64,000 bases of DNA, taken from a virus. The first letter of the stretch is position 1. Each line of letters begins with the position of its first letter. The stretch covers positions 32,001-96,000 of the IMG/VR virus record IMGVR_UViG_3300025881_000008; one strand, written 5' to 3'. The position numbers and the translations under genes are program-made. The notes beneath the pieces were generated by a model. It saw only the letters and a program-made list of their open reading frames with translations, was not told the origin of the DNA and made no database searches. Shown here piece after piece: positions 6,687 to 28,509 of the stretch.

Positions 6687-7667
6687 TTAAAATAAATCGT
6701 CTTCGGTAATTGACTTGCTCTTCTTGTTATAGTCAACCTGCTTTTTATAGAAAAAATCACCCTCTTTAGTAGCTGTGATTTCTACATCGAACCATAGTGT
6801 TTTTTCTAGTTCGGTGAAATCAACATCAAATATTGGTTTCATTCCAATACGAGTTAGTGAATTATTAAATCTGTTTTGTATAAAATTCTTAATGGTATCC
6901 TTAGAAAGAAAGTCAAGCTCTCCTTTTTCAAAGATCCAATCAAGGATTTTAACTTCGGCTTCATATGCCTTTCTACACGCAGAATCAATAAGTTCTTCAA
7001 ACTCTTCATCAAACCATTCAGGGTTCTCTGCTTTAATTATATTGATTATTTCAGATCCAAAATTACCGTGAATTTCTTCTTCTTTAGATGTTGCCTCAAC
7101 TACATTTGAGATACCTTTGAATAGGTTTTTCTCTTTGTTGAAAGACATCATAATTAAGAATTGGCTAAATAAACTTACATGTTCAATAAATAATGAAAAT
7201 AGAAGTACTGATTTGGTGTACATTTTATCATCTCTACTTCTTGTACCGTCTAAATACTTTCTTAAATAAGCTATCCTGTCTTTGATAGCTGGAATTTCTA
7301 CAACATTTTGGAATTCTTTTTCCAAACCTAAAACTCTAAGTAATTGAGCGTATGCATCTTTGTGTCTTACTTCAGACTCTGCAAATGTCATACCAACATC
7401 ACCTACTTCGGTGATTGGCATTCTTTTATAAAGATCTGCCCAAAAAGTTTTAACATTAACTTCAATTTGAGCAATAGCTAACATCGCTCTCTTAATTACT
7501 TCTCTCTCTTGTTTAGAAATTTTTGTCTTGAAGTCGTCAATATCTGTGGTAAAATTAAATTCAGTGTGGATCCAGTATGAGTGTCTAATAGCGTCTTTAT
7601 AAGCTAATAGTTGTGGATATTCGTATGGTAGGATATTAACCCTTGGTGCAAAAATGTTCTTATTCAT
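6687..7667 (-). CDS. nrdB: Class I ribonucleotide reductase beta subunit
   Basis: QIEVNVK, ESEVRHKDAY, FIEHVSLF, KEEEIHG ligand motifs; DFF and C-terminal DDLF. Confidence 0.95.
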   Translation of the reverse strand: MNKNIFAPRVNILPYEYPQLLAYKDAIRHSYWIHTEFNFTTDIDDFKTKISKQEREVIKRAMLAIAQIEVNVKTFWADLYKRMPITEVGDVGMTFAESEVRHKDAYAQLLRVLGLEKEFQNVVEIPAIKDRIAYLRKYLDGTRSRDDKMYTKSVLLFSLFIEHVSLFSQFLIMMSFNKEKNLFKGISNVVEATSKEEEIHGNFGSEIINIIKAENPEWFDEEFEELIDSACRKAYEAEVKILDWIFEKGELDFLSKDTIKNFIQNRFNNSLTRIGMKPIFDVDFTELEKTLWFDVEITATKEGDFFYKKQVDYNKKSKSITEDDLF

Positions 7668-14197: not shown

Positions 14198-14264
14198 TAA
14201 ATATAATAAAAAAAGGCCAAACAAAAAAATGTTTGGCCAATTATTTTCAAAAAGTTATTAACAA
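14198..14264 (-). promoter_or_regulatory. Bacteroidota-type (host sigma) promoter candidate with upstream TTGTTAATAAC box
   Basis: - strand TATATTTA at 14205-14198 (cf. TAnnTTTG) with TTTG upstream. Confidence 0.5.
14208..14238 (-). terminator. Intrinsic terminator ending the internal-protein block
   Basis: 9-bp stem GGCCAAACA/TGTTTGGCC followed by T7. Confidence 0.75.
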
Positions 14265-14272
14265 CCTTAGAT

Positions 14273-15451
14273 CTAGTAAGATAATCTATCTTCTATCTGT
14301 TTTCTTTTAGTTTTTAAAGCATCAATGCGATCTTCGATTGCATTTAGTTCACCGCCATATCTGTTAGCATCTTCATCAGACCATTCAGTACCCCTTTCGC
14401 CAGCCTCTGATTCCATATCTTTATACAATTGAGATCTTTCTGAAGTTAAATCTTTAAGTTCATTTGCAATATCCCAAAGTTGATCTTCTAATACATCCCT
14501 TTGTTTACCATAAACTCTTTTCTTTTTGTCCAGCGCTGCTTGAGCTTTTTTAGCTGCCATTGTTGATTTCATTGCTCTCATTGCCACTAGAACTGGATCA
14601 TTAATATCTGTTGCCTCTTCAATAATTTCATTTGATTCGTGTACCAGAGATCTTTGTACTTCAGCGATATATTTTTGGAGTGACTTACCATAATAGCTTT
14701 CTAGTCCCTCAACTGCAGTTTTAGCACTGTTATTATAAATCTCATCAGCCGCCTTTCTACCCATTTTTGAATTAAGTACACCTAATGCCCCTGTTTCGGT
14801 TAGTTTATACTTTTTTTGAAGATCTTTTACGCCTTGATCAAAAAGAGTCTTAGCTTTCTTTTCATTAAAGCTAGTTTCTATTTGACCATAAAAACCATAT
14901 GACATATTAATATCATCTTGTGAGTATGCCTCGAACGTTTTGATATATTTCATTTTTTTTCTTTTCTTTTTATATTCTTCTTCGGCATCACCAGAACCTG
15001 CTGGAACATCACCTGATCCAACTGTACCATTACCTGGTAAAACTACTGGACCCATACCCGTTAAATTAGCAGGGGTTATGTTTTCGTCTACTGTAATTCC
15101 TCTCTTCTTTAAGATCTTTTCAATTTCTTGATAAGCTTTCTTATAATCGGATTTAGTATAGTGCATTCCTTTAGCATAATTAGCATAACCGTCTAATGCT
15201 CCGTTATACATTCCTAGTAATTCTTCATCTGACATACTATCATTAAATACAAACGGTCCAATAAATGCTTCATCTACCGTCTCTGGTAAACCAGTATGCT
15301 TTGTACTTGCAAAATCTTTCAACTGCTTAAGAGTCATATTATCTGCTAATTCTTTTATTTCAGCACTAACTTCATCAGATTTTAACTCACCCTTTTTATA
15401 AGCGTACGCTTGTCCCATTAATCTTTGTTGTGATTTACTTGTACTTGGCAT
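14273..15451 (-). CDS. Multi-domain putative internal head (poly)protein with N-terminal DUF3008-like domain
   Basis: MPSTSKSQQRLMG...LKDFASTKHTGLP; internal MKYIKTFE motif; domain ends at VDE/IEE. Confidence 0.6.
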   Translation of the reverse strand: MPSTSKSQQRLMGQAYAYKKGELKSDEVSAEIKELADNMTLKQLKDFASTKHTGLPETVDEAFIGPFVFNDSMSDEELLGMYNGALDGYANYAKGMHYTKSDYKKAYQEIEKILKKRGITVDENITPANLTGMGPVVLPGNGTVGSGDVPAGSGDAEEEYKKKRKKMKYIKTFEAYSQDDINMSYGFYGQIETSFNEKKAKTLFDQGVKDLQKKYKLTETGALGVLNSKMGRKAADEIYNNSAKTAVEGLESYYGKSLQKYIAEVQRSLVHESNEIIEEATDINDPVLVAMRAMKSTMAAKKAQAALDKKKRVYGKQRDVLEDQLWDIANELKDLTSERSQLYKDMESEAGERGTEWSDEDANRYGGELNAIEDRIDALKTKRKQIEDRLSY

Positions 15452-15508
15452 AATTACTTCCTAGCGTATTGTTTTAATAGTATGTTTCATAATTGTATTG
15501 TTTTTTTA

Positions 15509-15919
15509 TTAATAGTTTTTTGCCAGTTTTTTCCAGTTAGACAATGTTTCTAATCCTAATAATATTTCTTCCATTCTTCCCAATGCATCATTGAAGTACG
15601 CATAACGCCTCTTTCCATCTACACCATCATGATTATTAATGACGTAGTATGATATGCTGCGCCCGTTTTTATTCAAGTAATCTAATGCGTGGTGATCTTC
15701 ATATCCAAATTTCTTTGTTAGAACATCGAATGTTTCTATGAATAAGAGCTTCATGTCAGGGACCTTCATATCGTTATATTTATAGTGTTTAAATGTACCA
15801 ATAAAAGATGATACTAATTTTTGTTCTACGTCTTTCCAGTCAAACTGTTCTTCTGATCCAAATCTCTTAGGAATACTTTGTTCGTTTAAAAATTGTTCAA
15901 ATAATTGTATGTGTTTCAT
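15509..15919 (-). CDS. Putative internal head protein
   Basis: Likely start ATG 15919: MKHIQLFEQFLNE (capsid-targeting-like). Confidence 0.65.
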   Translation of the reverse strand: MKHIQLFEQFLNEQSIPKRFGSEEQFDWKDVEQKLVSSFIGTFKHYKYNDMKVPDMKLLFIETFDVLTKKFGYEDHHALDYLNKNGRSISYYVINNHDGVDGKRRYAYFNDALGRMEEILLGLETLSNWKKLAKNY

Positions 15920-15987
15920 AGTTTTAATTCTATAATTAAGCAGAGTACCATGGTTTAATCCAATACTCAAAGAATACTCTTTTGAAT

Positions 15988-17553
15988 TTACCAGACATAA
16001 TCAAATGATTCAATCTGATTGATTCTATCTTTAATTGACTTAGCGTAGTTCTTAGCTTCTCTTTCGTAGTAAGACTCTCTGTCGCCATATTGTTTTTCTG
16101 ACTCTTCAGCCTGCCCAATATAACTAACATATCTATTATAATCGTCTAAGATGCTTGACATATGATTAGAAGCATCTCTTAATCTAGCTTCGCTACCATT
16201 TGCTTTACGACCAATGATAATATCTTCATAACGTCCTTTTTCACCTTTAGCTAAACCGTCTTTAATTTGAGTAGTTAGAGATTCAATAGCGTCTGCAACC
16301 ATTTTGTCTAATGGTAAAGAAGCCGCTTTATTAGCTAAAATTTGGTGGTATCTGTCCATGTTCTCTTTCTTGAAGTCTTTATCTGACTTAAATGCGATTG
16401 CACCTTTTTTAGCATCAGCCCTTGAGGCTCTTTCAGCTTCAGCAGAATATTTCTGTCTTAAAAGTGCCATGTTTAAAACAATAGCTCTATCTGCAACTTC
16501 GGCAATTCTTTTTACGTTATAAAGACCTGTTCCGTCCCATCCTTTGTACTTTTTAGAAATACCAACTGAATCAGACTCGCTACCTTTAGTTAATTTATAT
16601 TGTTTATCATATTTACCCCAAGATTTAGTGTAAAATGCATTTTCACCAGAAGCAACCGCTAATAAGTAGCCTTCGCCTGGGATTGTTTTATGATCATACC
16701 ATGCATCACTAGGTGCATATGGATTTTCTTTTGGTACATCAGACACATAGAAAATAATTGAATCCACTTGCTTATTTTTATAAGCAGTCTCTGGATTAAC
16801 TACTAAAATATCTTCGTCTTCAACAAGGTCCATTTTAATTTTAGCTGTACCATAAAATGCTTTCGCTAAAGTAGCGTCGAATTTAGCGCCTTTAGTTCTA
16901 AATAAACTAGCAAGCATACTAGACTTAAATGCTTCGGTAACTAATTCTTTTGATTTATTCGTGGTGTTTAGTGAATTTACAAAGTCACCAAAACTTTCAA
17001 ATACAAAGTTTGTTTTCATGTTATTATTTGTTTTATTTTCTTTTACTAATTTTGGATTCTTATTAAGAAGTTCTTCCATGTCTAATTCTGACAAGGCCAT
17101 AAAACTATCTTCACCATATTTTTTAGCTAGTTTATCAGCTAACTTGATATCTATTACTCTTGCCACTTGACTGTAATCTAATGTTGCAACGCCAAACTCT
17201 CCAAAAATCTCTTCAGCTCTTGCGTTTGCAATTTTAAAGGGAGTTGCTTTTTCATTAATATCTATAGTAGTTGTTAATTCATTTAGAATTTTCTTACCCG
17301 TTTTAGAAAGTGTGATACCCTCTTCACTAACATTAAAATAAGTAGCGTTTCTTTTAATCCATCTCGTACTATCAACTGTCATCTCTTTTAAAATAGTATC
17401 AAACTCTTCTTTAGTAAGTTTACCATCTTTAATAGCTTCTAAAACTTTATTTCTAATTCTAGCAGCCTTGCCAACTTTAACAGCTGGGTAGTTTTCAGTA
17501 TATTTTCTTTTGACAGTGATGTGTCTTTCTTCTATTGGTTGATTATTATCCAT
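15988..17553 (-). CDS. Putative internal head polyprotein
   Basis: 521 aa; internal MKTNFVFESFGDF motif; IEE/INE/VKE/VTE junctions. Confidence 0.6.
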   Translation of the reverse strand: MDNNQPIEERHITVKRKYTENYPAVKVGKAARIRNKVLEAIKDGKLTKEEFDTILKEMTVDSTRWIKRNATYFNVSEEGITLSKTGKKILNELTTTIDINEKATPFKIANARAEEIFGEFGVATLDYSQVARVIDIKLADKLAKKYGEDSFMALSELDMEELLNKNPKLVKENKTNNNMKTNFVFESFGDFVNSLNTTNKSKELVTEAFKSSMLASLFRTKGAKFDATLAKAFYGTAKIKMDLVEDEDILVVNPETAYKNKQVDSIIFYVSDVPKENPYAPSDAWYDHKTIPGEGYLLAVASGENAFYTKSWGKYDKQYKLTKGSESDSVGISKKYKGWDGTGLYNVKRIAEVADRAIVLNMALLRQKYSAEAERASRADAKKGAIAFKSDKDFKKENMDRYHQILANKAASLPLDKMVADAIESLTTQIKDGLAKGEKGRYEDIIIGRKANGSEARLRDASNHMSSILDDYNRYVSYIGQAEESEKQYGDRESYYEREAKNYAKSIKDRINQIESFDYVW

Positions 17554-17564
17554 TTTTTGATATA

Positions 17565-17975
17565 TTATTTCTTAATCTTTGCTAAATGACCGTTTGTTTC
17601 TTCATACTGGAATGAGAACTTAGACTTTGCATAAAGAGTTCCCATTGAGAACGATACTAATACACCATCTGGTTTTTTCATAGCAGTGTTGTATGCGTCA
17701 GTTGCAGAGGCCTCGTCATCAAATACACCGATGTATTGTTTTGAGCCAGCAGAACCAATTGTATATCCTGCTTCTAATCTAATTCTTTGACCATAAAAAT
17801 CTGCAGAATTATGGGCAAATACTAAGTATTTAGTCTCACCTTTTTCTGGTAGATTATCGGCATGCTCACCGAATTCAGTTCTAGAATTATAGTGATAAGA
17901 CCCAAATTGAATAGATTCATCTACTGATATGTTATTGGCTTCTGTAAAACTTTCAAATGATTTTATATTCTTCAT
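17565..17975 (-). CDS. Putative internal head protein
   Basis: N-terminal MKNIKSFESFTE. Confidence 0.65.
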   Translation of the reverse strand: MKNIKSFESFTEANNISVDESIQFGSYHYNSRTEFGEHADNLPEKGETKYLVFAHNSADFYGQRIRLEAGYTIGSAGSKQYIGVFDDEASATDAYNTAMKKPDGVLVSFSMGTLYAKSKFSFQYEETNGHLAKIKK

Positions 17976-17994
17976 TTTGGTGTATTATGTTTAT

Positions 17995-19842
17995 TTATAT
18001 ATTCTTAATAAATTGATCGAAGGTCATAACAGATTTTGACTCTGCCAAAACACCCATACTGTCTTCTAATTTAGACTTTAATTCACCATACATGTTGTGT
18101 ATCTCTTTAGGTGTTAGTTTCTTAAATAGCTTCTCATCACCATCTAGCATTGCATTTCTAACTTGCGTAGCTGAAATATTTTTACCAGTTCTTGGAATTT
18201 CAAAAAGACCAAAATCAGTCCTTACACCCAAGTCTTCTCTATATTCTGGTTTATCAACTTGATATGAATACGTTTTAAGTCTATCACTTCCAGTGCCCCA
18301 TAATACGGGTTCATAACCATCGGCTCTCATTGTATTAAACATTAGGTCAATTGCTCCCCTGTCAATAATATAAACCTTCTCAATTGGATATTTACCTTTT
18401 AGTTGGTTTAACATTTGAAGTTGAGTTTCTTCGTCGTATGGTCTAGAAAAAGCATCCTCTTTCTTTTTAGTTTTTGATTTAACTAGAAAAACAACTACCG
18501 GATAACCGTTTTGTTTATTAATAGTCTCAACTACTTTAGCATGGCCCAGCGTAAATGGTTGGAATCTACCAACGAACATGTTGACTGGTGTTTTACCTTG
18601 TTCTGGGTATTTAACTGTAAGCCCCTCTAAAACTGGACTAACTTCATGTTGAAGTTTTTGGTTAACTAAATATGTTTTAAATGTCATAACGTCATTTTCA
18701 TTTGTTTTTGCCATTACAATGCCTTCTATAGTTTCAACTATTTCATTGATTTGGTTCATTAAGTCAGTGTTAATAATGTCTGTTTCTCTAGTTCTCTTCT
18801 TTCTAAAACTACCTAACGCAATTTTAAATAACTCTGCCAAAACTTTATTTTGAATTAATGATATTGTTTTTTCATCTTTAATAAATGTACGATTAAGATC
18901 AAATCCTTTGTTGTCTGAGAAATCAGCTGAATCAAAATTAGCTCCAATATATTTAGAGGCATTCTTTTCAATGTATGCATTAAATATATTTGAGATTAAT
19001 TCAATATATCTAAGGTCTGACTCTTCTTCTGATATTTCAATAGCTAATAAATCATAGTTAGTAATAAATTCTACTAGATCTAAAATTGAAATCTGATACA
19101 TGTCAGATGGACTTCTTTCCTCTTGTGGTTTTCTATCAAATCTCTCTAGCTTAAAACTCTTAATGTTTTTACCTTCGTAGAAATTGATTATTAACCCATC
19201 AATATCTTTATCTAGTGTAAAGTTTAACGCAGGAGTATTAAGGCCATTATTAAATATATTGTATATTGTTCTAGTAAATGATTGTGATTCAAACTTAGTT
19301 ATGAAGTCTTGATCAGATGTGTTTAGAAGCGATATAAGGTCGTCCTTTTGATTAGATTGTAGTTTACCTTCAAATACAATTGGCGGTCTCTGAACTCCTA
19401 ATTTATCCGCCCATTTGTTTAGAACCTGTGGATCTCTAATTACTTTTTTAATTTGAGTAGGATCATTTGGGTTTAATACTTGTATATGTGTTAGGATTAA
19501 GTGGTTTTTAGGTAGTACATCATATTCAATGCTTACCGTTTTATTATCCAACATGTAGTCAAAGCCGAATTTCCAATCTAATGGCATCTCTTCGGTAACT
19601 TCTTTTAATATTGTTGAAAAATATTTAATACCATTTTCATAGTATTTAACCATGGTTCTATCTACTCTATCCATCTGGTATTTAGAACCGCTTTTATAAT
19701 AGTTAAAGCCTGTATCGGTTCTTTTAACATGAAATGAAGATGCTTGAATCTTTTCAGATACAACGCATGTCAGGTCCAACATAGCCAAAAAGTCATTGGT
19801 ATTAGTTGATTCAAAATATGTTCTTAAGTTTTGTAAAGCCAT
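17995..19842 (-). CDS. Degenerate RNA-ligase-fold domain fused to a HIGH-family (cytidylyl/NMN adenylyl-type) nucleotidyltransferase
   Basis: C-domain GRFQPFTLGH...GSDR...ISATQVR; N-domain SEKIQAS and IDGLII resemble ligase motifs I and IV. Confidence 0.75.
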   Translation of the reverse strand: MALQNLRTYFESTNTNDFLAMLDLTCVVSEKIQASSFHVKRTDTGFNYYKSGSKYQMDRVDRTMVKYYENGIKYFSTILKEVTEEMPLDWKFGFDYMLDNKTVSIEYDVLPKNHLILTHIQVLNPNDPTQIKKVIRDPQVLNKWADKLGVQRPPIVFEGKLQSNQKDDLISLLNTSDQDFITKFESQSFTRTIYNIFNNGLNTPALNFTLDKDIDGLIINFYEGKNIKSFKLERFDRKPQEERSPSDMYQISILDLVEFITNYDLLAIEISEEESDLRYIELISNIFNAYIEKNASKYIGANFDSADFSDNKGFDLNRTFIKDEKTISLIQNKVLAELFKIALGSFRKKRTRETDIINTDLMNQINEIVETIEGIVMAKTNENDVMTFKTYLVNQKLQHEVSPVLEGLTVKYPEQGKTPVNMFVGRFQPFTLGHAKVVETINKQNGYPVVVFLVKSKTKKKEDAFSRPYDEETQLQMLNQLKGKYPIEKVYIIDRGAIDLMFNTMRADGYEPVLWGTGSDRLKTYSYQVDKPEYREDLGVRTDFGLFEIPRTGKNISATQVRNAMLDGDEKLFKKLTPKEIHNMYGELKSKLEDSMGVLAESKSVMTFDQFIKNI

Positions 19843-19852
19843 GTTGTGTTGT

Positions 19853-21139
19853 TTATCTTCCGTACTTAATAATACCCATAAGCTGGTTAATTGCAGCGAA
19901 TGTTCCTGTTAACTTAAATGTCTTGCCTTTATAAACAAAGACAATCCCTTCAGTTGGCATAATTGAATCAATTCCACCTATTCTTTCTAATCTAGCTAAT
20001 TCAGCTTCAACTTTTTGTATCTGTTCGATTGATCCACCTTTTTTAATTTTATCAGCTTCGGTTCTAATTTGATTATGTAATCTTTGCATTTCAGCATCTG
20101 GTGACGCAGCAACAAAATTAGAAGCGTTTTTTAGAATAATAGAACCTAGTTCTAAGAATAGATCTTCAAACGGTCTAATATTCTCTTTGTATTTCTTAGC
20201 AACATCTTCTTTGTCAAATTTCTTAATAATAGCTGCCTTGTCTTTTCCAAGTTCTTTGTCTAAAGATCTTAAATTAAGGGTCTTTTTATCTCCATATGCC
20301 CATCTTAATAATAAACCTTCTTTAAAGTCTTGTGTTAAATCTGGGAAATTTGAATCTATAGTTTCCCTCCACCACATTTCATGATAGCGGCTAACTTCAT
20401 CAGCGTCTGTCAAATTATATTTGTCGCGGAGCGCTTCAACCTTCTTAATAAATTTATTTTTATTTTCTTCAAAATTAAGGTCCTTACCTAATTTAATTAT
20501 TTGAGGTGGAATTATAGTAAATGTTTTACCGACATTTGCTTTAACAGACTCTAAGGCTTTTGCTATTACTGATGCAGGTTTATTATCTTCACCAATTATA
20601 TTACCATTACCATCTGTCTTTTTTATACCATGAAATTGAATAATATCTCTATCATAATAGATTACATTTGGATTTTTAGAATAGATCAATTCCATGTTCA
20701 TCCAATTGAGTCCATTTTCAAATACTTCTTGTTGAACTTTAGCTGGTAATTTAATCAACGCATTGGCTAAATCTTCTGCAGCAAACTTAAAAGTTTCTTC
20801 AACCATTGCAGATGCATGTCCATCAAATTTTTGCTTAAACGTTTGAAGATCCATTGGTGTTATAAGTTCACCCTTGTTACGAGCAAATTTAACCTCACCA
20901 TCTTGAATAGTTGCAAATACATTTTGTCCATCTGTTTTTTCAGTAGCGTCCTCTTCAAAATTAAGTTCACCACTTAAACCAGCTTCTATAAGAGCTTTGA
21001 AATCTGTAAATGTTAATGACTTATCATCAAATGGATGTGCCATATGACCGGCAGCCCCGCCTTCTAAAATTAAAGCTTCTTTTATATTTGAATGTAATTT
21101 TTCAGTTACAAACTGTTCAAAATTATGGTAGATCTTCAT
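19853..21139 (-). CDS. Ligase/capping-enzyme-fold nucleotidyltransferase-like protein with capsid-targeting-like N-terminus
   Basis: TEKTDGQN (KxDG), FARN, EGIVF, FKLTG; starts MKIYHNFEQFVTE. Confidence 0.65.
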   Translation of the reverse strand: MKIYHNFEQFVTEKLHSNIKEALILEGGAAGHMAHPFDDKSLTFTDFKALIEAGLSGELNFEEDATEKTDGQNVFATIQDGEVKFARNKGELITPMDLQTFKQKFDGHASAMVEETFKFAAEDLANALIKLPAKVQQEVFENGLNWMNMELIYSKNPNVIYYDRDIIQFHGIKKTDGNGNIIGEDNKPASVIAKALESVKANVGKTFTIIPPQIIKLGKDLNFEENKNKFIKKVEALRDKYNLTDADEVSRYHEMWWRETIDSNFPDLTQDFKEGLLLRWAYGDKKTLNLRSLDKELGKDKAAIIKKFDKEDVAKKYKENIRPFEDLFLELGSIILKNASNFVAASPDAEMQRLHNQIRTEADKIKKGGSIEQIQKVEAELARLERIGGIDSIMPTEGIVFVYKGKTFKLTGTFAAINQLMGIIKYGR

Positions 21140-21163
21140 AATGTATATATTGTAATTTAATTA

Positions 21164-22891
21164 TTAGCCTAATGAGCTAGTCAGCATACCGACTGCTACG
21201 CCATAATCACCCTTAGATTTAGCTAAGATGCCATCAATTACTTTTTTTGCTTTAGCCTCATCAAATTCTTCACCAAATGCTTTTTGTAAAACCGTGGTTG
21301 CATATTCGTTAAATTCTTCATCAGATTTAACTTCAGCTTCGTTTACTTTAGATTCAACAATTGCTTTAACATCTTTTAGTTTGATGCTTTCGCTGTCAAT
21401 GTAATCCATTGCCATACCTACTAAATCATCTGAATCTAGATCGTACTTGTCTTCTGCATAATATTCATCGTCCATTAATAAATCATCACAAATATCTCTT
21501 AAAGTATCTGCATCTTGGTCATAAAGAAAATCTTCAATTTTGTTTAATTCAGACTTAGATAGTTTTTCGTTAACTACTGATTCTTCGATATATTCAGCTA
21601 GATCTGCATCAGCCCATCCTAATTCTTCATCAGCTAATACTGCTTCAAGATCTTTTCTCTTACCTTGCATTGTGATAACTGGAGTTCCGCCACCTGGACC
21701 GTCCATCTTTTTATCAATAATAGTAACCTTGTGTTTCTTTAAGAATTTTAAAAAGTCTTTATCATCTGGATCCATTGCATCCATTTCAACAGTTGCTTCA
21801 CATAAAATATCAGCGTTTTCAATAACAATACTTTCGTTAAAGAATCCATTAAATGCGTTCAATAAAGATTGACCCGCTGCCTCTTGTTTAATTTGCTCTA
21901 AGTAAAGTGCAGTACCTTCAACGATACCGATACCTGACCATCCTGCTGCGTTAGCAATATCAGAATAGTATTTGTCTAGTACTCTCTTAACTGTAGTTGC
22001 ACCGATCTTAATAAAGTGATTACCTAAACCTGGCATTTTAACTTCAAAGGTACTAATAGAACCTTTAATATTTTTAGAGATTGCAAATCCTTCTCTTGAG
22101 AAGTTAGCATCTTCCATTGCCATTTCAAATAAGTACTTAATACATCCTAATACTGATTCATTTGACATTGCACCCAAGTCAGTTAGTTTTTTTGCAAACA
22201 AGTTATTGTAAACTGTAACAACTTTCTTAGCATCTCTCTTGTATTTTACCTGAATCGCCTCATTTACTGAAACAGAAACAGATTCAAATGCTGGATATAA
22301 GTCATCATAGCCATTGCCATAAATATCAGCCATTAACCATTGCTTGTTAGCTTCGTCCCAAAGGTAAACGAATTCTGCGCTGCTATTGGTAGCTACATCT
22401 CTCAAATATTTAGAAACGTTAGCGATTGAACCCTTTGAAGGTGTCATTGCATTTTTATCTCCGTAAAAATTCATCTTATCAATACTATCTTCTAAACCTG
22501 AACAATCTCCCTTTGCAATAACAGCATCAACTGCTTTTGGGTTTTTAAAAGATTTCTTAATAATAGGTAACATGTTTTCTGGATAAGAATCGTAATGTGT
22601 ATAAATTGAAGTGATATTACCTTTCTTATCTATTTTACCAAATTGACCTCTTGTGCCCTCTTCGATAAGTGTAACTGCTTCGTTAATTTCAGCACCTCTT
22701 AATCTATTAAAAAATTCTGATCTTTGCTCTTCTGTCAATTCTTTGATTGAAGCTACTTTAAATTCAGATAAGAGTGCTTTAAAAGCCTCTGCTTCATTAG
22801 TTCTTTTTACGATCTTTTCTTCTTCTAAGTGTCTAGTTTGAGAAATCTTTGCTTCGGTAGCAAATTGATCAAATGATTTTAACTTTTGCAT
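21164..22891 (-). CDS. Putative internal head polyprotein
   Basis: MQKLKSFDQFATE start; segments bounded by INE/IEE/VNE; contains a YTHYDSYP domain and a GPGGG-P domain. Confidence 0.65.
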   Translation of the reverse strand: MQKLKSFDQFATEAKISQTRHLEEEKIVKRTNEAEAFKALLSEFKVASIKELTEEQRSEFFNRLRGAEINEAVTLIEEGTRGQFGKIDKKGNITSIYTHYDSYPENMLPIIKKSFKNPKAVDAVIAKGDCSGLEDSIDKMNFYGDKNAMTPSKGSIANVSKYLRDVATNSSAEFVYLWDEANKQWLMADIYGNGYDDLYPAFESVSVSVNEAIQVKYKRDAKKVVTVYNNLFAKKLTDLGAMSNESVLGCIKYLFEMAMEDANFSREGFAISKNIKGSISTFEVKMPGLGNHFIKIGATTVKRVLDKYYSDIANAAGWSGIGIVEGTALYLEQIKQEAAGQSLLNAFNGFFNESIVIENADILCEATVEMDAMDPDDKDFLKFLKKHKVTIIDKKMDGPGGGTPVITMQGKRKDLEAVLADEELGWADADLAEYIEESVVNEKLSKSELNKIEDFLYDQDADTLRDICDDLLMDDEYYAEDKYDLDSDDLVGMAMDYIDSESIKLKDVKAIVESKVNEAEVKSDEEFNEYATTVLQKAFGEEFDEAKAKKVIDGILAKSKGDYGVAVGMLTSSLG

Positions 22892-22924: not shown

Positions 22925-24433
22925 TTATATATCTCCTTCAAAATCGACATTTTTAATATCGTATTTGAATTTCTGTTCTCTATAGATGCGTTGACGCTCC
23001 TTTGCATGTCGCATTAAATAATTATCCCAGTCCTGAGAAGATAAATCATCTACAAAATCAATAATATTAACAGAGTCCTTTGAGCTATGTTGTCTCAGAC
23101 CTCTACCAATTGATTGTCTAATAATTACCTCTGATTTAAATGATTCTGTAAAGAAGATGTTATGTATTTTCTTAATCGAGATACCCGTAGAGAAGGTACC
23201 GTATGAAGCGACTATGACGACATCTTCACCTGCCTCCATTTTTTTCTTATGTTCTTCGCGAATATCTTGATCAATACCTCCATCAACATAGTAAACTGTT
23301 TTATCACTTTCTCTGCGAAGTTTTTCATATATTTTTTTACCATGCTCAATGCGATGGAAAAGGACGAGACTATTACCGCGTACTCTGGAAATAATACTAG
23401 TAATAAAGTTAAGGCGGCCTGGTGAATTGATAACATAATTCTGCTCAAACTTAAAAACATCTTTGCTTTCATATCTGTTTTGGGACATTTCTCTAAACGC
23501 ATCTTTAGTAGATTGCGGAGCATAGTCCATTTTTATAATTTTTACTTTACATCCTGCGATATGCCCCTCATTTTGTAGATAGTTTGCACTAATCTCTGTA
23601 ATTAATGGACCTGTATATGCCATAAGTGTTAGCCTATCTAATGTACCTTCTTTTGGTATAGTACCAGATAAACCATACTTGTATTCTGCGTTAACACATT
23701 TTTGTAAGATGGTTTTAATAGAAGCTGATTTTGCTTTGTGGGTTTCATCGACAATAACTGCGTCGAATTGTTCAAAATATGCCTTTTCTTTTTTAACAAG
23801 AGACTGATATGTACCGATAATAACATTTCTACCTGGCCTAATTTTTTGGCCGCTATAAATCTGCTGTACTTTAATATCTATTGCATTCCTGTAATTATAA
23901 TCTAGGAAATCTTCGCTAGCCTGTACAACCAAAGAAACATTGGGCACGATGAATAGTATTTTTCCTGCCTTTTGCTTTTCTAGTAGATATGCAACTGTTA
24001 AAAAAGAGATGAGTGTTTTACCAGCAGAAGTTGCCAATTCACTTAAACATCTTTTAAATTTTAGAATATTGAATGCAGCCTCTATTTGATAGTCTCTCGG
24101 GGTAATTTCTGATTTTTCAAAGAAATCAATTGCCCATTGGGTAAACTTTTCTTGATTAATATTGGTATCGAATATTTCTGTAATACCTTCGAGTTTAAAC
24201 TCAAATTTATAGTCCTTGCATATACCCATGACTTCTCTCCATAGACCGGAAGGAATCCACTTATCATCTTTAATATAGGAAACATAACCGTCCCACAACC
24301 CTTTTTTAACTAAGGGGTTGAAACGCCATGACTCAATCCTCTTATTAAGAGAAATATTGAGTTGTTCTAATTCTAATTCAGTTGCTACATCAATACGAAG
24401 CAACTGTTTGTTTTCAGTTAAACTAAGCTCCAC
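22925..24433 (-). CDS. uvsW: SF2 helicase UvsW
   Basis: PRDYQ, ATSAGKT, DETH, LSGT, QSIGRGLR. Confidence 0.93.
   Translation of the reverse strand: MELSLTENKQLLRIDVATELELEQLNISLNKRIESWRFNPLVKKGLWDGYVSYIKDDKWIPSGLWREVMGICKDYKFEFKLEGITEIFDTNINQEKFTQWAIDFFEKSEITPRDYQIEAAFNILKFKRCLSELATSAGKTLISFLTVAYLLEKQKAGKILFIVPNVSLVVQASEDFLDYNYRNAIDIKVQQIYSGQKIRPGRNVIIGTYQSLVKKEKAYFEQFDAVIVDETHKAKSASIKTILQKCVNAEYKYGLSGTIPKEGTLDRLTLMAYTGPLITEISANYLQNEGHIAGCKVKIIKMDYAPQSTKDAFREMSQNRYESKDVFKFEQNYVINSPGRLNFITSIISRVRGNSLVLFHRIEHGKKIYEKLRRESDKTVYYVDGGIDQDIREEHKKKMEAGEDVVIVASYGTFSTGISIKKIHNIFFTESFKSEVIIRQSIGRGLRQHSSKDSVNIIDFVDDLSSQDWDNYLMRHAKERQRIYREQKFKYDIKNVDFEGDI
22926..22933 (-). promoter_or_regulatory. Putative late promoter GATATATA for the internal-protein block
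   Basis: Overlaps the uvsW stop, ~35 nt upstream of the next ATG. Confidence 0.6.
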
Positions 24434-27119: not shown

Positions 27120-27147
27120 CTTATAATCGCGTACTAAAAAAAGTTTC
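27120..27147 (-). promoter_or_regulatory. Phage promoter GAAAC-N17-TATAAG for gp32-primase-uvsY-uvsW
   Basis: Recurring motif with exact 17-nt spacer. Confidence 0.72.
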
Positions 27148-27322
27148 AACTATTAGTCAATGTTAAAATACTATTACCGTTCTCTTTCCATCTACCGTCC
27201 TCGAGCTTAAGCAGCCCTGCTTTGTGGAGTAGTTCTTCACGCTCAGTTGTTGTGATCCTATTTTCTCGCACCATCGTTATGAGGGCTTTATTGAGATGGA
27301 TGAGTTCAGTTGTAGCTAACAT
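27146..27322 (-). CDS. 58-aa hypothetical protein
   Basis: Manual translation MLATTELIHLNKALITMVRENRITTTEREELLHKAGLLKLEDGRWKENGNSILTLTNS*; has its own promoter. Confidence 0.6.
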   Translation of the reverse strand: MLATTELIHLNKALITMVRENRITTTEREELLHKAGLLKLEDGRWKENGNSILTLTNS

Positions 27323-28124: not shown

Positions 28125-28493
28125 TTAGATTCTTTTACCAAGACTAGCACCTAGTGCAGCGCCAACAAGTCTTGAGGTTAATAAATCATAGAAAATACCT
28201 TTTTCAATACCTAATACTTTAGCAATCATCTTACCAACTGATTTACCTAAAGCGAAACCAGTAAGACCACCAATAATTGAACCAAAGAAACCTTCATTTG
28301 TAATTTCTTCATTAAGCCTTTCAATATCAAAGGTACCATCTTCATTTTTATATTCTAATGCGAATGATTCTAGGGCGGCATCAATCTTAGTCTCTAACTC
28401 AGGTGTCCATTCTTCTTGTAGACCCTCGTTAATAAGTTTGATATCCTGTTCTGTGACAGCATTTTCAACTAAGTATGTATTAAATGTTTTCAT
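28125..28493 (-). CDS. Putative virion protein with capsid-targeting-like N-terminus and glycine-zipper C-terminus
   Basis: MKTFNTYLVE start; acidic N-half; GFFGSIIGGLTGFALG...LVGAALGASLG. Confidence 0.65.
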   Translation of the reverse strand: MKTFNTYLVENAVTEQDIKLINEGLQEEWTPELETKIDAALESFALEYKNEDGTFDIERLNEEITNEGFFGSIIGGLTGFALGKSVGKMIAKVLGIEKGIFYDLLTSRLVGAALGASLGKRI

Positions 28494-28509
28494 ATTTTAT
28501 ATATCGTTT

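Follow-up and report, generated by a model that had tools for sequence, protein, structure and literature searches.

Why should the products of seven phage genes, otherwise dissimilar, carry copies of one and the same short peptide? The question is raised by a block of genes running from 22891 to 14273 on the minus strand of a 64,000-nucleotide stretch of viral DNA, bases 32001-96000 of the IMG/VR record IMGVR_UViG_3300025881_000008, here called the window. The source contig, 104,074 bp long with a G+C content of 34%, holds nearly all its genes on the minus strand and belongs to an uncultured, distant T4-like myophage. An original prediction, drawn from the letters alone, had seen in the block a set of cargo proteins directed to the capsid and processed by the head protease. 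The reading favoured here, with a probability of roughly 0.65, is that the block forms a late operon encoding capsid cargo, which would be loaded by means of the peptide (hereafter the leader), cut by the prohead protease and injected with the DNA, and whose modules are exchanged at the joints between them.

The leader, the head machinery and the late motif

The block encodes, in order of transcription, proteins of 575, 428, 615, 136, 521, 136 and 392 residues, each with at least one copy of the leader, whose pattern across the seven genes is M-K-x-φ-K-x-F-E-x-F-φ-N-E (φ, an aliphatic or aromatic residue). All the copies lie on the minus strand. At the N-terminus are found MQKLKSFDQFATE (22853..22891, residues 1-13 of the 575-residue protein), MKIYHNFEQFVTE (21101-21139, 428-residue protein), MKNIKSFESFTE (17940-17975, first 136-residue protein) and MKHIQLFEQFLNE, which heads the second 136-residue protein, the true start of which is the ATG at 15919. 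Internal copies are MKYIKTFEAY (14924-14953, residues 167-176 of the 392-residue protein), MKTNFVFESFGDFVN (16975-17019, also listed as MKTNFVFESFGDF from residue 179 onward, 521-residue protein) and VMTFKTYLVNQ (18658-18690, residues 385-395 of the 615-residue protein), while VMTFDQFIKNI (17998-18030) forms the last 11 residues of the 615-residue protein. A short leader, MKTFNTYLVE (28464-28493), stands at the N-terminus of a 122-residue protein encoded elsewhere in the window. The recurrence of the motif at N-terminal, internal and C-terminal places, as originally described, was confirmed for every copy.

In the 32,524 residues of the minus-strand open reading frames (ORFs) of the genome the core F[ED]x[FY] occurs 32 times, and F[ED]xF falls at exactly residue 7 in five proteins, about 0.1 being expected at any one position. 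Four of these five continue with φ-x-E at residues 11-13. The fifth copy in this register is that of a 112-residue protein of the head module, outside the window (MKIIKTFEDFISE). Relatives were gathered with the 428-residue protein, which gave 80 of 235 related IMG/VR loci, and with the protease, which gave 80 more loci of the head module. In these roughly 160 loci a strict leader heads 319 of 2415 ORFs, and the cargo behind it, clustered by its first 90 residues, falls into at least 52 unrelated clusters. The logo of 306 non-redundant N-termini reads M-K-[HK]-[ILV]-K-[LTS]-F-[END]-[QED]-F-[LIV]-[NTS]-E, and conservation drops off directly after the Glu, with φ at position P3 and Glu at P1 (56%, in a loose set). 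The leaders of the window end in FATE, FVTE, SFTE, FLNE and YLVE, and a shorter class follows M-K-T-F-x-x-Y-φ-x-E. The codons of the leader are free to vary (TTT/TTC 20:12, CAA/CAG 19:13, AAC/AAT 22:10) and selection therefore acts on the peptide; a role for the leader at the RNA level was rejected on the same ground. What is conserved has, in its classes of residues, the build of the T4 capsid targeting sequence (CTS), MKTYQEFIAE, and would correspond to it.

A T4-type head machinery is encoded outside the window, upstream in the order of transcription. It includes a gp20-type portal protein (Pfam Portal_T4, E=8e-73), a gp23-type capsid protein (Gp23, E=1e-47; genome 18468-19895, L002:3468-4895, minus strand) and a 658-residue protein in which an N-terminal gp21-type prohead protease (Peptidase_S77, E=5e-11; phrog_207, E=2e-45) is fused to a scaffold-like tail. 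When the protease is aligned to the T4 gp21 structure 5JBL, both the catalytic His (ELDHP) and the catalytic Ser (SSRAAG) are seen to be retained, and the protein scores better as S77, the gp21 type, than as S80 (E=3e-6). The module further contains the 112-residue ORF, a 364-residue ORF and homologues of gp2, gp4 and the late sigma factor gp55, and T4-type baseplate and fibre genes lie inside the window. The nearest relatives of the capsid protein are those of an uncultured megaphage (49.5%), Lak phages and Tenacibaculum phages. A megablast search of the block against 50,697 phage records gave no match, and tblastn with the 428-residue protein against the phage collection found three distant records only and no isolate of the group; a proteome of the group was not found either.

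Two members of the head module, one after the portal gene and one after the capsid gene, are headed by the leader in all the relatives inspected. The second of them, the 364-residue protein (genome 17245-18339, L002:2245-3339, minus strand), starts with MQLKSKLKLYEEF, which is related to the leader; its counterparts (L084-L163) range from 286 to 826 residues and are hypervariable, yet their first 15 residues or so (MKLKxKLxLYEEF) are fixed.

The block begins 42 nucleotides behind a late-promoter motif, GATATATAA (22925..22933, minus strand), which precedes the gene for the 575-residue protein, and is closed by an intrinsic terminator, GGCCAAAC-ATTTTTTT-GTTTGGCC followed by seven T (14208..14238, minus strand), which forms a clean hairpin. 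Framed by these two signals, the genes from 22891 to 14273 look like one late operon, and the late-type promoter and the terminator that had been placed at 22926 and 14208 are both borne out. Over the whole contig the motif GATATATA[AT] has 21 copies on the coding strand and none on the other; wherever a gene is called downstream of a copy, 12-106 nucleotides separate the copy from the gene start, and these genes are nearly all for virion proteins (portal, protease, capsid, sheath, tube, neck, baseplate and fibres). It is also found 12 nucleotides upstream of the leader-bearing genes for the 122- and 112-residue proteins. Of 33 distinct regions upstream of the block in relatives, 27 have the motif at -41 to -47 relative to the first gene, and the block loci hold 191 copies on the coding strand against none on the other, which points to GATATATA[AT] as the late-promoter consensus of this phage group. 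Two copies (window 7698 and 27365) precede genes for non-virion proteins, an NrdB-like protein (6687-7667) and a 58-residue ORF (27146-27322). A late motif of its own also precedes the gene, outside the window, for a 394-residue protein matching no family (genome 25588-26772, L002:10588-11772, minus strand); with 2.03 φ-x-E-[AGSN] sites per 100 residues, the second-highest density in the genome, this protein may be a further scaffold or core protein degraded by the protease.

Joints between exchangeable modules

According to the original prediction, unrelated small domains are separated by [IVL]-x-E sites. In that form the claim is weak, because such triplets are common (1.6 per 100 residues genome-wide); it holds once the borders are defined independently. 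For this reason the borders of the modules were set without use of the triplet, from homology breakpoints, from insertions in relatives and from the linkers of an AlphaFold model, and the borders obtained in these three ways all match φ-[N/T]-E sites.

The 575-residue polyprotein (21164..22891, minus strand) illustrates this best. It consists of the leader and six modules of 6-17 kDa (residues about 14-71, 72-211, 212-365, 366-442, 443-518 and 519-575), separated by five joints on the minus strand. INE71|A (22679..22687) is marked by breakpoints and by an AlphaFold linker, and VNE211|A (22259..22267) is a point at which whole modules are inserted in relatives. The third joint, FFNE353-SIVIE358-NADILCE365|A (21797..21844), offers three candidate sites; the fourth, ESVVNE442|K (21566..21583), is canonical; and the fifth, ESKVNE518|A (21338..21355), precedes a conserved C-terminal module of 57 residues. 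Homology between this protein and its relatives breaks at residues about 71, 205-214, 348-366, 438-455 and 504-519, and when 17 full-length relatives are aligned, entire additional modules, each bounded by E-S-φ-φ-[N/T]-E, are found at these breakpoints. The domain shuffling anticipated in the original prediction is accordingly seen among the related phages, modules being swapped exactly at the joints both in this alignment and among the moved modules described below.

The AlphaFold model of the same protein (mean predicted local distance difference test, pLDDT, 73; predicted template modelling score, pTM, 0.32) has the appearance of beads on a string. Exactly five of its segments fall below a pLDDT of 50, namely residues 71-78, 203-213, 352-364, 438-442 and 516-519, and these are the five joints. 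Although they make up 9% of the residues, they contain 10 of the 21 φ-x-E sites (P=2e-6) and five of the six φ-N-E sites (P=3e-5). The coincidence of the five linkers with five φ-[N/I/C]-E joints describes a chain of several independently folding modules connected by a uniform motif, in which the Glu sites of the joints lie in disordered linkers. The outcome that the original prediction had named as its refutation, Glu sites buried inside folded domains, is thus not what is seen in this protein. A Foldseek search of the model against the PDB gave no match, and in the BFVD the modules resemble only small, stand-alone, uncharacterised proteins of T4-like and jumbo phages. At the family level, module B matches phrog_1987 and the 57-residue C-terminal module weakly matches phrog_5341, 'internal virion protein' (E=0.008).

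The canonical form of the joint is E-S-V-V-[N/T]-E. In the block loci ES-x-φ-[NTI]-E occurs at 288 sites, compared with 7.2 in shuffled sequences (40-fold); it is followed by Ala in half of the cases, and extra φ-x-E triplets are often stacked before it. Some modules stand directly behind a leader in one phage and inside a protein in another. Immediately ahead of such an internal module φ-x-E is found in 130 of 236 distinct contexts, and it lies within two residues in 192 of the 236; about 35 of these contexts derive from an artefact, a truncated ORF of an unrelated structural gene (L114), which inflates the count of exact matches and should be ignored, the picture of the cargo modules being unaffected. 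Sites of the form φ-x-E-[AGSN] number 2.28 for every 100 residues of the protease-scaffold protein, 1.91 for the 575-residue protein, 1.65 for the 364-residue protein and 1.47 for the capsid protein, the genome mean being 0.56.

The joint is conserved as DNA as well. Its 18-nucleotide coding sequence, GAATCAGTAGTTAMTGAA (GAA-TCA-GTA-GTT-A[A/C]T-GAA), keeps particular codons far above general usage in about 200 joints with unrelated flanks: TCA 80% against 34%, GTA 90% against 40%, and GTT 93% against 48%. As it is kept at synonymous sites, the joint is also to be regarded as an in-frame recombination joint, and recombination in frame at these positions can be read, from the pattern of the sequences, as keeping the joints uniform too. 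The joint sequence GAATCAGTAGTTAATGAA (L004-L083; window 21566-21583) has stops in both other frames (TAG in one; TAA and TGA in the other) and an ATG in the +1 frame.

A clue to the origin of the joints comes from the 521-residue protein. In one relative (L035) its C-terminal module is a separate leader-tagged gene, MKHIKLFEQFINE|SDSSLNE|AFAS..., and the counterpart in the window has the same module behind the in-frame internal leader copy MKTNFVFESFGDFVN ... VTE207|AFKS. In some relatives the internal copy is without Met-Lys, ...ESFSSFVESLNE|A, and grades into the canonical joint. This graded loss suggests that the joint is the C-terminal half of a leader after gene fusion: the internal copies are best read as leaders of formerly separate genes fused in frame, and the joint as what was retained of the leader when neighbouring leader-cargo genes were fused. 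A sequencing or assembly error behind the in-frame internal copies was considered and rejected, as they recur in independent metagenomic contigs with different modules after them.

The predicted RNA-ligase-fold enzyme and the other cargo

The 428-residue leader-tagged protein (19853..21139, minus strand) shows 72-98% identity among the relatives fetched, and metagenomes contain more than 2250 close homologues of it. Its AlphaFold model (pLDDT 84, pTM 0.80) has a detached leader helix, a disordered segment at residues 14-31 and a long helical C-terminal half. In structural comparison with VIA-align the best match is the RNA ligase of Naegleria (6VTF; Z 9.6, root-mean-square deviation 3.9 Å, 187 aligned residues), T4 Rnl1 and Rnl2 follow with Z 8.0 and 7.8, and the first 39 ranks are taken up entirely by RNA or DNA ligases; the E-values given by Foldseek are weak, none being better than 5e-3. 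At the sequence level no ligase family was found by phmmer against the PDB or by Pfam. The nucleotidyltransferase motif I, K68-T-D70-G71, is nevertheless clear, E67, K68, D70 and G71 being invariant in 21 sequences down to 34% identity. On the strength of the model, the protein is predicted to be an RNA-ligase-fold enzyme.

Other lineages have stand-alone homologues, which are without the leader. Many distant relatives have the ligase-fold domain as the C-terminal part of proteins of 500-1985 residues (P0138-P0284, for example P0170, P0164 and P0276), the match beginning at residues 14-22 of the query, directly after the leader. Fused relatives also contain cytidylyltransferase-like, Zeta-toxin/AAA_33 P-loop kinase, poly(A)-polymerase/CCA-adding head and ADP-ribosyltransferase (Tox-ART-HYD1) domains, a set that would make up a toolkit for RNA repair or host modification. 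In several of them φ-N-E stands a few residues before the ligase-fold domain, as in FESVNE|ALLLEGGAYGHM.

The 615-residue protein (17995..19842, minus strand) has no N-terminal leader. It consists of an N-terminal domain, the internal tag, a cytidylyltransferase-like domain (residues about 415-602; Pfam CTP_transf_like, E=5.5e-8; phrog_3041/395), the site LAE601 and the C-terminal tag; both tags, together with the φ-x-E before the C-terminal one, are kept in about 60 relatives with 47-98% identity. Against the PDB, phmmer gave only weak NMNAT-type matches, and the idea that the N-terminal domain is a degenerate paralogue of the ligase was not confirmed by BLASTP (E=0.85). The two proteins, the RNA-ligase-fold enzyme and the cytidylyltransferase-like protein with its C-terminal tag, would form the conserved core of the cargo.

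Four further genes complete the block, all on the minus strand. The first 136-residue leader-tagged protein (17565..17975) has a body that in relatives is the C-terminal module of longer proteins, and the second (15509..15919) is an orphan among the relatives fetched. The 521-residue polyprotein (15988..17553) runs from MDNNQPIEE through INE101|K, the internal leader and VTE207|A to a C-terminal module of 314 residues; MDNNQPIEE is a degenerate short leader, in the place of which relatives have MxFNxFLNE before residues 7-9. The 392-residue protein (14273..15451) begins with DUF3008 (residues 1-58, Pfam E=2e-10), followed by VDE61|A, a second module, VDE123|N, a connector, the internal leader copy and a variable C-terminal part. 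In most relatives DUF3008 is the leaderless N-terminus of the last protein of the block and ends at a conserved φ-x-E|[AN].

The connector (residues 124-166, window 14954-15082), NITPANLTGMGPVVLPGNGTVGSGD..., follows the pattern NITPxxφxGMGxφxLP...GSGD...AEEEYKKKKK and resembles the N-terminal region of the capsid protein, MNLTGMGAVSFP...GSGD (BLASTP E=3e-4, 41% identity over 41 residues). Each related phage has one such connector, in the last gene of the block, invariably with a Lys-rich run and an internal leader copy behind it. The connector may offer another means of retaining cargo in the capsid, or may serve to decoy the protease. Elsewhere on the minus strand, a separate gene (28125..28505 including its own late motif at 28497-28505; ORF 28125-28493) encodes the 122-residue protein with the short leader, which has a C-terminal glycine zipper (Pfam Gly-zipper_Omp, E=4e-4), is kept in 64 of the relatives fetched and might, once delivered from the capsid, act on membranes.

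Most modules matched either no family in Pfam and PHROGs or families without assigned function. The payload was originally proposed to consist of small proteins; two of the cargo proteins are instead large enzymes of 47 and 71 kDa.

A possible route from operon to host, and its alternatives

The steps that would lead from the block to an injected set of proteins may be outlined as follows. Transcription would start at the GATATATAA motif (22933) and end at 14208-14238, as the signals themselves suggest, and would yield seven precursors. By analogy with the T4 CTS, we infer that during prohead assembly the amphipathic leader of 10-13 residues (M-K-H-[IV]-K-L-F-E-Q-F-[ILV]-N-E, or in the short form M-K-T-F-x-x-Y-φ-x-E; in the 615-residue protein, the internal and C-terminal tags) docks each precursor onto the scaffolding core, which would be composed of the tail of the 658-residue protease-scaffold fusion and the leader-bearing 112-residue core protein. 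The gp21-type S77 protease would then cleave after the Glu of φ-x-E and remove the leaders, and would probably open the E-S-V-V-[N/T]-E joints too, releasing about 15-20 modules of 6-47 kDa. The pieces would be kept inside the DNA-filled head and pass into the host together with the genome. As to diversification, comparison of the relatives indicates that the joint would be a leftover half of the leader and that the modules are traded in frame, through recombination at these joints. Since in distant phages the core enzymes are fused with kinase, CCA-adding-type and ADP-ribosyltransferase domains, the cargo would most likely serve as a pre-loaded kit for RNA (tRNA) repair or for modifying the host.

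Several observations weigh against this picture. The late motif is not exclusive to virion genes, one copy standing before the NrdB-like gene, and the block sits among replication and DNA-modification genes, away from the head module. Several leaders of the first polyprotein in distant relatives have no clean φ-x-E end. The predicted mature pieces are mostly acidic or neutral (isoelectric point, pI, 4.0-6.9 for the modules of the 575-residue protein), the clearly basic ones being only residues 10-101 (pI 9.7) and 208-521 (pI 8.6) of the 521-residue protein and residues 384-600 of the 615-residue protein (pI 8.8). A drop in pLDDT at the joints is in some measure to be expected, since insertions and deletions interrupt the alignment at these places. 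Lastly, the conservation of the joints at synonymous sites could in part reflect recombination and not recognition by the protease.

This last point bears on an alternative that we consider unlikely, namely that the leader is a true capsid-targeting propeptide and is the only part to be cut, the polyproteins staying whole and their joints being flexible linkers for recombination. It agrees with the conservation of the joint DNA at synonymous sites over about 200 non-homologous flanks, with the internal proteins of T4, which are cut once only, beside the CTS (PMC8442874), and with the packaging of large proteins such as Alt as a whole. However, the end of the joint, φ-[N/T]-E|A, is identical to that of the leader, a module that has shifted from a leader to the inside of a protein still has φ-x-E at the exact position, and two or three φ-x-E are stacked in disordered linkers, as in the multiply cut propeptides of T4 and SPN3US (PMC5694885). 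The conservation of the joint DNA does weaken the uniformity of the joints as evidence of cleavage; it leaves unexplained why φ-x-E is retained when a leader replaces a joint.

More improbable is a leader that acts as an N-terminal helix for some other purpose, such as the docking or recognition of an enzyme, degradation or membrane association, which would make the block a set of cytoplasmic late proteins. The replication and DNA-metabolism genes around the block and the acidic character of the cargo would suit it. Yet in every relative inspected the same leader heads two head-module proteins, encoded next to the genes for portal, protease and capsid. Its residue classes correspond one by one to those of the T4 CTS, it ends in the protease motif, and the gene maps inspected gave no sign of another partner enzyme. 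As for the motifs being a by-product of an AT-rich, Lys-, Glu- and Phe-rich composition and of descent from paralogues, with no shared function, the abundance of [ILV]-x-E triplets and the frequency of MK- starts in AT-rich genomes are what one would cite for it; the residue-7 register in five proteins, the 40-fold excess of joints over shuffles, and the presence of the leader on at least 52 otherwise dissimilar families, with codons that are not conserved, already refute it by their counts.

A late operon of injected, protease-cut capsid cargo remains the preferred reading, and all that sequence can probe of the original interpretation agreed with what it predicted. A more elaborate form of it is tentative and rather doubtful: a plug-and-play cargo system in which a 13-residue address works at the N-terminus, internally or at the C-terminus, a six-residue joint is at once the cut site and an 18-nucleotide recombination joint, dozens of unrelated modules can be swapped, chained and delivered, the RNA-repair core acts against tRNA-cleaving defences at injection, and one cargo is held by a mimic of the capsid arm. 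Should the preferred reading be true, the set of injected proteins could be read from the sequence for a very abundant group of environmental phages, and leader and joint would form a simple grammar for finding injected effectors, of anti-defence or host-takeover type, among unannotated genes. It would also describe a route of effector diversification, the in-frame exchange of cassettes at a joint conserved both as peptide and as DNA, and would suggest that RNA repair can be delivered ready-made instead of being expressed after infection. Moreover, leader and joint could serve as parts for loading and release in the engineering of T4-type capsids.

Among known systems, the closest is the CTS of T4 with the internal proteins IPI-III and Alt. 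IPI-III are small, highly basic and associated with DNA. In both phages a leader of about 10 residues, with aromatics three apart and a φ-x-E end, is common to unrelated proteins; the short class found here equals the T4 CTS in length and has its aromatics in the same places (4 and 7), followed by an aliphatic eighth residue and a Glu as the tenth. The two share, moreover, a gp21-family protease, a gp20/gp23 head, genes outside the head cluster (late in T4, and here putatively so) and a cargo that is hypervariable between relatives. In T4 the CTS, MKTYQEFIAE, is removed by gp21 and is enough to load foreign proteins into the head (PMC8442874, PMC3012670, PMC5694885), and Alt loses a C-terminal propeptide at LTE-619 (PMC5694885), which recalls the C-terminal tag that follows φ-x-E in the 615-residue protein. 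Unlike that of T4, the usual leader here has 13 residues (MKHIKLFEQFLNE), and its tags are also internal and C-terminal; the cargo is chained into polyproteins by a dedicated joint, ESVV[N/T]E, includes the RNA-ligase-fold and cytidylyltransferase-like proteins, and is acidic or neutral, in contrast to the basic IPI-III.

In the giant phages phiKZ, 201phi2-1 and SPN3US, ejection and inner-body proteins are cut by an S80 prohead protease at [S/A/G]-x-E (PMC5694885). The likeness lies in the many head-internal proteins with propeptides cut after Glu, in substrates that have more than one site and in paralogues sharing the same N-terminus (PMC5694885), whereas here P3 is aliphatic or aromatic and not small, the protease scores as S77, and the substrates are chains of unrelated, exchangeable modules. 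A virion RNA polymerase was not seen among the annotated genes of the 104-kb contig, in which no search aimed at one was made.

For chained effectors that travel with the DNA, the nearest concept in the literature is that of the polyvalent proteins (Iyer et al. 2017), in which several unrelated effector domains per polypeptide are predicted to be packaged and injected and a proteolytic release has been proposed; they are typically anchored by MuF or portal domains and have a metallopeptidase of their own (PMC5512222). The distant relatives of the 428-residue protein, within multi-domain proteins of 500-1985 residues, are similar to these. In the present system, by contrast, targeting would depend on a T4-type leader and cleavage on the prohead protease, at a uniform joint that is conserved as DNA too. 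Pfam and PHROGs gave no peptidase or MuF domain in the seven proteins of the block, most of their modules matching no family at all. As for the RNA-ligase-type nucleotidyltransferases (Naegleria Rnl5, T4 Rnl1 and Rnl2, and the ligase domain of fungal Trl1), the likeness concerns the 428-residue protein only and consists of motif I, K-x-D-G, and the fold, while the leader, the long helical C-terminal half and the lack of a significant match at the sequence level set it apart.

Literature searches found no paper on a uniform joint, on internal or C-terminal tags, on a leader-tagged ligase or on a capsid mimic, nor on a capsid targeting sequence in flavobacterial or Bacteroidota phages. In comparison with the systems above, what appears to be new here is a joint that would be both a protease motif and a recombination joint, the internal and C-terminal placement of the tags, a leader-tagged enzyme with a predicted ligase fold, and a putative mimic of the capsid protein within the cargo.

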